Below are positions 1 to 221 of a stretch of DNA of 221 bases, one piece after another. Location: assembly GCF_003334305.1 (NCBI RefSeq), contig NZ_QOWS01000089.1; one strand, written 5' to 3'. Every line of letters begins with the position of its first letter. Position 1 is the first letter of the stretch. The DNA is from Escherichia coli. Lineage in GTDB: Bacteria > Pseudomonadota > Gammaproteobacteria > Enterobacterales > Enterobacteriaceae. The position numbers and the translations under genes are program-made. The notes beneath the pieces were generated by a model, which was not told the origin of the DNA, searched no databases, and was given only the letters and a program-made list of their open reading frames with translations.

Positions 1-181
1 ATTGCTTCAAGAAATCGAGATGTGTTTCCCCGAAATCCTCTATATCTTCCCAACTTTCTGCACCAGAAATAACGGCAAAAATAGTCAATAGTAGGATGCC
101 TGACAATTTATGCTCTACTTTCCAGGCTTATCTGTAATCGGGAATAATAGAAATATGTTCCATCAATTTTTTAAGTTCCAT
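1..181 (-). pseudogene. ISAs1-family transposase (H-repeat-associated-protein-like), 5' portion; frame interrupted by in-frame TAA at 130-128; 3' end lies beyond position 1
   Basis: Minus-strand ATG at 181-179 with an AAGGTG SD 5 nt upstream. Translation is MELKKLMEHISIIPDYR, then TAA (130-128), then the same frame is open for 42 codons to the window edge ([42 protein letters not shown]). Both parts match, from memory, the N-terminus of E. coli H-rpt/ISAs1 transposases ([33 protein letters not shown]...[19 protein letters not shown]), where the stop position is Gln. No alignment was run. Confidence 0.6.
128..181 (-). CDS. Literal 17-codon ORF (MELKKLMEHISIIPDYR*), interpreted as the truncated N-terminal fragment of the transposase rather than an independent gene
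   Basis: ATG 181-179, SD AAGGTG at 192-187, stop TAA at 130-128. A second in-frame ATG lies at 163-161. Any product would be a non-functional transposase fragment. Confidence 0.3.
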   Translation of the reverse strand: MELKKLMEHISIIPDYR

Positions 182-186
182 TTGTT

Positions 187-192
187 CACCTT
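187..192 (-). promoter_or_regulatory. Shine-Dalgarno sequence (AAGGTG) for the transposase start codon
   Basis: Plus-strand CACCTT at 187-192 is AAGGTG on the minus strand; 5-nt spacer (AACAA) to the ATG at 181-179. Confidence 0.6.
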
Positions 193-200
193 ATTTATGT

Positions 201-206
201 AAGGAG
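201..206 (+). promoter_or_regulatory. Shine-Dalgarno sequence (AAGGAG) for a plus-strand start at 216
   Basis: Perfect AAGGAG core, 9-nt spacer (TATTTGATC), then ATG at 216-218. It may instead be a chance match inside the IS terminal region. Confidence 0.4.
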
Positions 207-215
207 TATTTGATC

Positions 216-221
216 ATGTAT
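216..221 (+). CDS. Possible 5' end of an unidentified plus-strand ORF (only ATG TAT visible), divergent from the transposase
   Basis: ATG at 216-218 with a strong SD at optimal spacing. Two codons are visible, so coding potential and product cannot be assessed. Confidence 0.3.

Follow-up and report, generated by a model that had tools for sequence, protein, structure and literature searches.

The 221-nt window, by which we mean the whole stretch of Escherichia coli DNA analysed here, is 100% identical to positions 736785-737005 of the complementary strand of the E. coli K-12 MG1655 chromosome (NC_000913.3; 3786-4006 in our K-12 locus, L003). In K-12, this segment comprises the spacer between ybfQ and ybfL and the 5′ end of the RhsC-linked pseudogene ybfL (b0705), within the gene run rhsC-ybfB-ybfO-ybfC-ybfQ-ybfL-ybfD-ybgA, where three H-repeat copies stand in tandem at the end of the RhsC element, ybfL being the middle one. 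Such H-repeats, located at Rhs element ends, have long been described in E. coli. The ybfL feature itself is already known as an annotated pseudogene in K-12, and in the titles and abstracts covered by a literature search it received incidental mentions only. All of the 221 bases agree with K-12 ybfL, with the ATG and the codon-18 TAA shared as well, beyond which the frame runs on to 378 codons; there is no sequence difference, and only the start of the K-12 feature is drawn differently, at TTG codon 26. The window is very probably the 5′ part of ybfL, a defective H-repeat copy interrupted by a nonsense stop; the H-repeat of E. coli is ISEc1-like and belongs to the ISAs1 family of insertion sequences. 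Established are the identity of the locus, the family to which it belongs, the nonsense change and how widely this change occurs in E. coli, and we met no evidence contradicting the identification as H-repeat and ybfL.

The coding frame lies on the minus strand. Translation gives an ATG at 181-179, a run of 17 codons, a TAA at 130-128 and then 42 further in-frame codons down to base 2. A preliminary description of the window had placed the start of an ISAs1/H-repeat transposase in this frame, and the translation of 181..1 is exactly as written there; its expectation that the next codon would begin with T and encode the Tyr following KQ is borne out as well, base 1 being the T of codon 61, which is TAT (Tyr) in the genomic continuation. 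The span covered by that description can be extended, bases 182-221 being part of the same element as a 5′ leader with a ribosome-binding site. In K-12, the frame opened by the ATG of the window has 378 codons, and the stop at codon 18 is its sole defect. The features of the window are the following, all on the minus strand:

182..221, minus strand: internal 5′ leader of the H-repeat (ISEc1-like); every H-repeat copy can be aligned across this stretch and on to CAGGGAAAGATCA, over about 144 nt ahead of the ATG
187..206, minus strand: hairpin CTCCTTA-N6-TAAGGTG that pairs the Shine-Dalgarno site (from folding; L004 6351-6370 in the yhhI version)
187..192, minus strand: Shine-Dalgarno-like AAGGTG, 5 nt before the ATG (from the sequence and the alignment with paralogs)
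131..181, minus strand: transposase codons 1-17 (MELKKLMEHISIIPDYR), with the ATG at 181-179 (from translation); identical to YhhI residues 1-17, and the start used by PGAP elsewhere
128..130, minus strand: premature TAA at codon 18, CAA (Gln) changed to TAA; yhhI, ybfD and ybfQ have CAA
2..127, minus strand: codons 19-60, ending in LDFLKQ, in which the DDE_Tnp_1-associated domain continues (PF13808 and NF033564 matches)
104..106, minus strand: in-frame TTG codon 26, the start of the K-12 ybfL feature (736900-737961, mapped through L003 3786-4006)

The family assignment rests on profile searches with the read-through translation, in which the codon-18 stop was taken as Gln. The 60 residues of the window match the Pfam family PF13808 (DDE_Tnp_1_assoc) with E = 2.8e-17 over residues 8-60 (model positions 2-54 of 88), which is the outcome anticipated by the preliminary description, and they also match the NCBIfam model NF033564 (ISAs1 family transposase) with 31.6 bits and E = 9.6e-8, residues 29-60 corresponding to model positions 1-32 of 314. 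The latter score lies under the curated cut-off of 70 bits because only 32 of the 314 model positions are present in the window. The full 378-residue K-12 frame passes this cut-off with 414.6 bits (E = 2.5e-124, model positions 1-314 of 314), and in Pfam it matches PF13808 (E = 9.9e-32, residues 8-94) followed by DDE_Tnp_1, PF01609 (E = 7.1e-31, residues 102-343). The full ybfL frame thereby shares the whole ISAs1 model and both Pfam domains in the order of the family, with the catalytic domain PF01609 lying outside the window. The similarity is thus well above anything that chance would produce. In addition, RefSeq uses the name "ISAs1-like element ISEc1 family transposase" for close relatives of YhhI.

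The locus is widespread in the species. A megablast search of the window against 5426 complete E. coli genomes gave matches in 5198, with a median of 4 matching places in each, and the best place was at least 99% identical to the window in 2662 records. RefSeq annotates the matching places as "ISAs1 family transposase", with an "internal stop" flagged at those inspected in other strains, so that 100% DNA identity links the window to annotated ISAs1-family pseudogenes in thousands of E. coli genomes, as the similarity to ISAs1 loci proposed at the outset had implied. The start of the pseudogene differs by annotation: K-12 RefSeq draws ybfL from TTG codon 26 (736900-737961), whereas PGAP starts it at the ATG in other strains and flags the internal stop (L003 3901, which is window 106-104, in K-12 versus L007 2971 in a PGAP-annotated strain). 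The copy lacks the uninterrupted frame of a functional transposase gene, given the TAA at codon 18 and the internal-stop or pseudogene labels of RefSeq. The "transposase gene" of the preliminary description therefore holds for the family, while the copy is a pseudogene and not a working gene, as its use of a read-through translation had already implied.

The most informative comparison is with YhhI (b3484), the intact transposase ORF of the RhsB-linked H-repeat, which has the same 378-codon frame as ybfL. The two genes are 96.4% identical at the DNA level over 1137 nt, they share the leader, the Shine-Dalgarno region and the element ends, and their first 17 residues are identical. At codon 18, YhhI has Gln (CAA) and the window TAA; the other differences within the 60 codons are Thr19, Asp28, Cys35 and Gly43 in YhhI, replaced by Ala, Gly, Phe and Ser in the window. 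Three of these substitutions (SG for SD, TIF for TIC and ESW for EGW) had been correctly given in the preliminary description, Ala19 for Thr19 being an additional one. The divergence between yhhI and ybfL is greatest in the region of the window, with 15 of the 41 differences falling within nt 1-181; SNPs specific to ybfL are located at ORF nt 52, 66, 83-84, 87, 93, 104 and 127. Upstream of the ATG, the Shine-Dalgarno motif is AAGGAG in the intact paralogs versus AAGGTG in the window.

All 221 bases of the window lie inside the H-repeat element. When the sequences upstream of the ATG are aligned for eight copies, the left end of the H-repeat falls at CAGGGAAAGATCA, about 144 nt ahead of the start codon, and the ybfL copy shares this left end with the yhhI copy. 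The window begins 40 nt upstream of the ATG, and the left inverted repeat is located about 104 nt further upstream, outside it. In the yhhI copy, the left end CAGGGAAAGATCA lies at L004 6235 and the right end ATCTTGCCCTG finishes at 7525, which gives an element of 1291 bp by our own measurement on this copy. Its terminal inverted repeats are imperfect, with 11 of 13 positions matching, and both ends are outside the window; they were located by aligning the copies, the inverted-repeat finder having given no direct report of them. Elements of the ISAs1 family are typically about 1.2-1.3 kb long with a single ORF and short terminal inverted repeats, following the ISfinder description. The yhhI copy agrees with this description in length, single ORF and inverted ends, and the H-repeat is likewise a single-ORF element, the ybfL copy differing from the family by its nonsense codon and the yhhI copy by the lack of a flanking direct repeat. 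No target-site duplication was found at this one old, Rhs-embedded copy (flanks ...CAACGGC|CAGGG on the left and CCCTG|AATACAG on the right), which counts against a recent insertion there and not against membership of the ISAs1 family. H-repeats have been listed as insertion sequences although their transposition has reportedly not been observed (PMC3032704).

The Shine-Dalgarno site of the leader can pair within a hairpin that differs among the copies. Its stem is a perfect 7 bp in yhhI, includes a G-U pair in the ybfD version and is disrupted by a U-U mismatch in that of the window, with folding energies of -8.0 kcal/mol (z = -3.2) in yhhI, -5.1 (z = -3.1) in ybfD and -3.5 (z = -0.55) in the window. 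Hairpins sequestering the Shine-Dalgarno site are common in the transposase leaders of insertion sequences, and the H-repeat leader hairpin may act as a translational brake on the transposase.

The stop itself distinguishes ybfL from its relatives, as in an alignment of the four K-12 copies codon 18 is CAA in ybfQ, ybfD and yhhI, ybfL alone having TAA. A 43-mer with the TAA at its centre was found exactly in 2684 records (about half of the genomes, ~2713/5426), at 4515 places and up to 5 times per genome, whereas the same 43-mer with CAA was exact in only 6 records; the CAA query also matched other H-repeat subtypes at 93-95% identity, and only the six 100% matches were used. The stop is real and not an error, because the exact TAA 43-mer occurs in these 2684 records, K-12 MG1655 among them. 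When the pattern CCCGATTACAGAYAAGCCTGGAAAGT was searched for in a genome set with one representative of each bacterial species, all of the 15 exact matches (15/15) carried CAA; they come from E. albertii, E. whittamii, Escherichia sp. MOD1-EC7003, Pseudocitrobacter faecalis and several evidently mis-binned MAG contigs. Since none of the 15 matches departs from CAA, the TAA allele is, as far as this sampling of sequences goes, derived and confined to E. coli genomes and one E. coli-like contig. One of the six CAA records in a ybfL-type context is strain 357900 at the rhsC locus (L005 2971-3737). ORF nt 52 and 675 are the only positions at which its copy and the TAA copy of strain 120899 disagree, and it represents either a reversion or a rarely preserved ancestral allele.

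If the locus is transcribed, ribosomes would start at the ATG and terminate after 17 residues. No full-length transposase would then be made, and the copy would be mobile only with transposase supplied in trans; judging from the frame, termination at codon 18 should abolish the function of the gene.

The sampled TAA copies occupy three chromosomal places, most of them beside Rhs sequences:

Place 1, rhsC-ybgA: K-12, KMS2005, 160-11H1, EC6030 and 120899
Place 2, yafV adjoining T6SS and Rhs genes: E2865
Place 3, RHS core / dsORF-h1 adjoining pptA: Ecol_224 and KFu021

The TAA copy of strain EA2 also abuts pptA, with no Rhs gene annotated in the 3 kb upstream. Compared with K-12 ybfL (L003 3826-4962), the TAA copies at the three loci (L002 5045-6181, L008 2971-4107, L010 2971-4107 and L009 2971-3743) show 0-1 differences in ORF nt 1-181 and 2.7-3.7% further on; had the first 181 nt diverged at the downstream rate, they would contain about 5-7 differences. 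The downstream differences among TAA copies are mostly synonymous (pS 0.06-0.10, pN/pS 0.06-0.14), and of the four full-length TAA copies examined, three (K-12, EC6030 and E2865) have an open frame past the stop, while the fourth, that of EA2, has a second stop at codon 227. Several other copies are without their 3′ end. Taken alone, the low pN/pS and the open frame are unlike a long-dead pseudogene. On the ten copies compared, the simplest reading would be mosaicism, in which recombination or gene conversion transferred a young TAA 5′ block to previously diverged H-repeat copies, and this reading is supported by the zero diversity of the 5′ block. The recipient copies would have diverged while still under selection and then gained the TAA block, and such a recent spread onto already diverged copies explains the low downstream pN/pS. 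The shared 5′ block thus probably stems from recombination or gene conversion and not from independent mutation. That about half of E. coli carry the TAA block on otherwise diverged H-repeat copies, at several Rhs loci, illustrates gene conversion among insertion sequence remnants.

The same observations bear on whether the frame beyond the stop could still be expressed. Bypass of the stop, or re-initiation at a codon such as TTG codon 26, which lies 21 nt past the TAA, would yield an N-terminally truncated transposase-like protein, in line with a frame that is open for 360 codons past the stop in K-12, EC6030 and E2865, with the mostly synonymous differences noted above and with the fact that about half of the E. 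coli genomes retain the TAA allele, which is found at several loci. However, a 5′ block that is identical where the downstream parts differ by about 3% fits a recent block spread, which is enough for the low pN/pS, and decay is seen in the second stop of EA2, the 3′-truncated copies and a 1-nt deletion in a MAG contig. Moreover, no convincing Shine-Dalgarno motif can be read ahead of codon 26, a start there would cut part of PF13808, which begins at residue 8, and none of the observations needs re-initiation or read-through to be explained, so we consider such a product unlikely. The inhibitor protein of Tn5 provides an analogy for a truncated transposase that restrains transposition, and a truncated ybfL product, if it were real, could restrain H-repeat transposition in the same way. 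It is similarly improbable that the TAA 5′ block, which corresponds essentially to the window, is a cassette that gene conversion has spread to at least three Rhs-linked loci and that has been retained in half of E. coli for silencing the transposase or for giving a re-initiated truncated regulator.

The remaining alternatives to a nonsense-interrupted transposase concern the nature of the short ORF and of the opposite strand. The 17-codon ORF (MELKKLMEHISIIPDYR) runs from an ATG, preceded at the correct spacing by a Shine-Dalgarno-like AAGGTG, to a stop codon, and its allele is widespread, as an independent small-protein gene could be; yet its 17 residues are the first 17 of the intact transposase YhhI, the same protein family resumes in frame directly past the stop, the ORF exists only through one C-to-T change, and a gene of this size is annotated neither in K-12 nor by PGAP. 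We judge an independent gene to be very unlikely, in keeping with the preliminary description, which had warned against reading the ORF as a novel peptide gene: the 17 codons are the head of the transposase, cut by a change from CAA to TAA. A structured non-coding RNA or a plus-strand antisense gene has equally little probability. Two plus-strand ORFs of 29 and 30 codons (2..91 and 110..202) are present, along with one promoter-like match on each strand and one terminator-like match on the minus strand, but an Rfam scan of both strands gave no match up to E = 1, and folding of the whole window on the two strands gave z-scores of -0.73 and -0.45, no better than shuffled sequences and with no structure signal. 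The two promoter-like matches compare with 0.9 +/- 1.1 expected from shuffles; the lone weak terminator-like match, inside the coding frame, was judged to be chance, and the two plus-strand ORFs, which are short, unannotated and antisense to a well-supported coding frame, were rejected. Finally, a sequencing or assembly error in an otherwise intact gene would involve only the single base that separates TAA from CAA, but the exact TAA 43-mer recurs in 2684 independent complete-genome records and 4515 places, including K-12 MG1655, and on this ground we rejected an error as next to impossible.

The coding signal of the window and its short ORF are fully explained by a known insertion sequence pseudogene, ybfL of the H-repeat (ISAs1 family), and the window is therefore not a candidate for a new peptide or RNA gene; the chief value of the result is negative.

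Some further observations concern rearranged and misplaced H-repeat copies. Strains 120899 and 357900 have one shortened gene named ybfD with a ybfL-type 5′ end. In 120899, this is a ybfL/ybfD fusion (L001 5423-6181 compared with L003 3826-5854), whereas K-12 has ybfL and ybfD in tandem, and the fusion in these two strains probably arose from a deletion by recombination between tandem H-repeat copies. E. coli-type H-repeat sequence with 92-99.5% identity to the window was also present on contigs (L015; L013, L018, L019 and L020) of MAGs labelled Candidatus Nanosynbacter, Bacillota, Streptococcus, Planococcaceae and Proteobacteria, which are most likely mis-binned Enterobacteriaceae contigs. 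On L015 (2164-2383 and 1784-2004), a ybfL-type copy carries the TAA with the 1-nt deletion directly after it. In E2865, the ybfL-type copy lies beside a second ISAs1-family pseudogene (L002 6284-7410), which is frameshifted and has an internal stop; the alignable DNA of the two is only about 67% identical, which makes it a separate member of the ISAs1 family.
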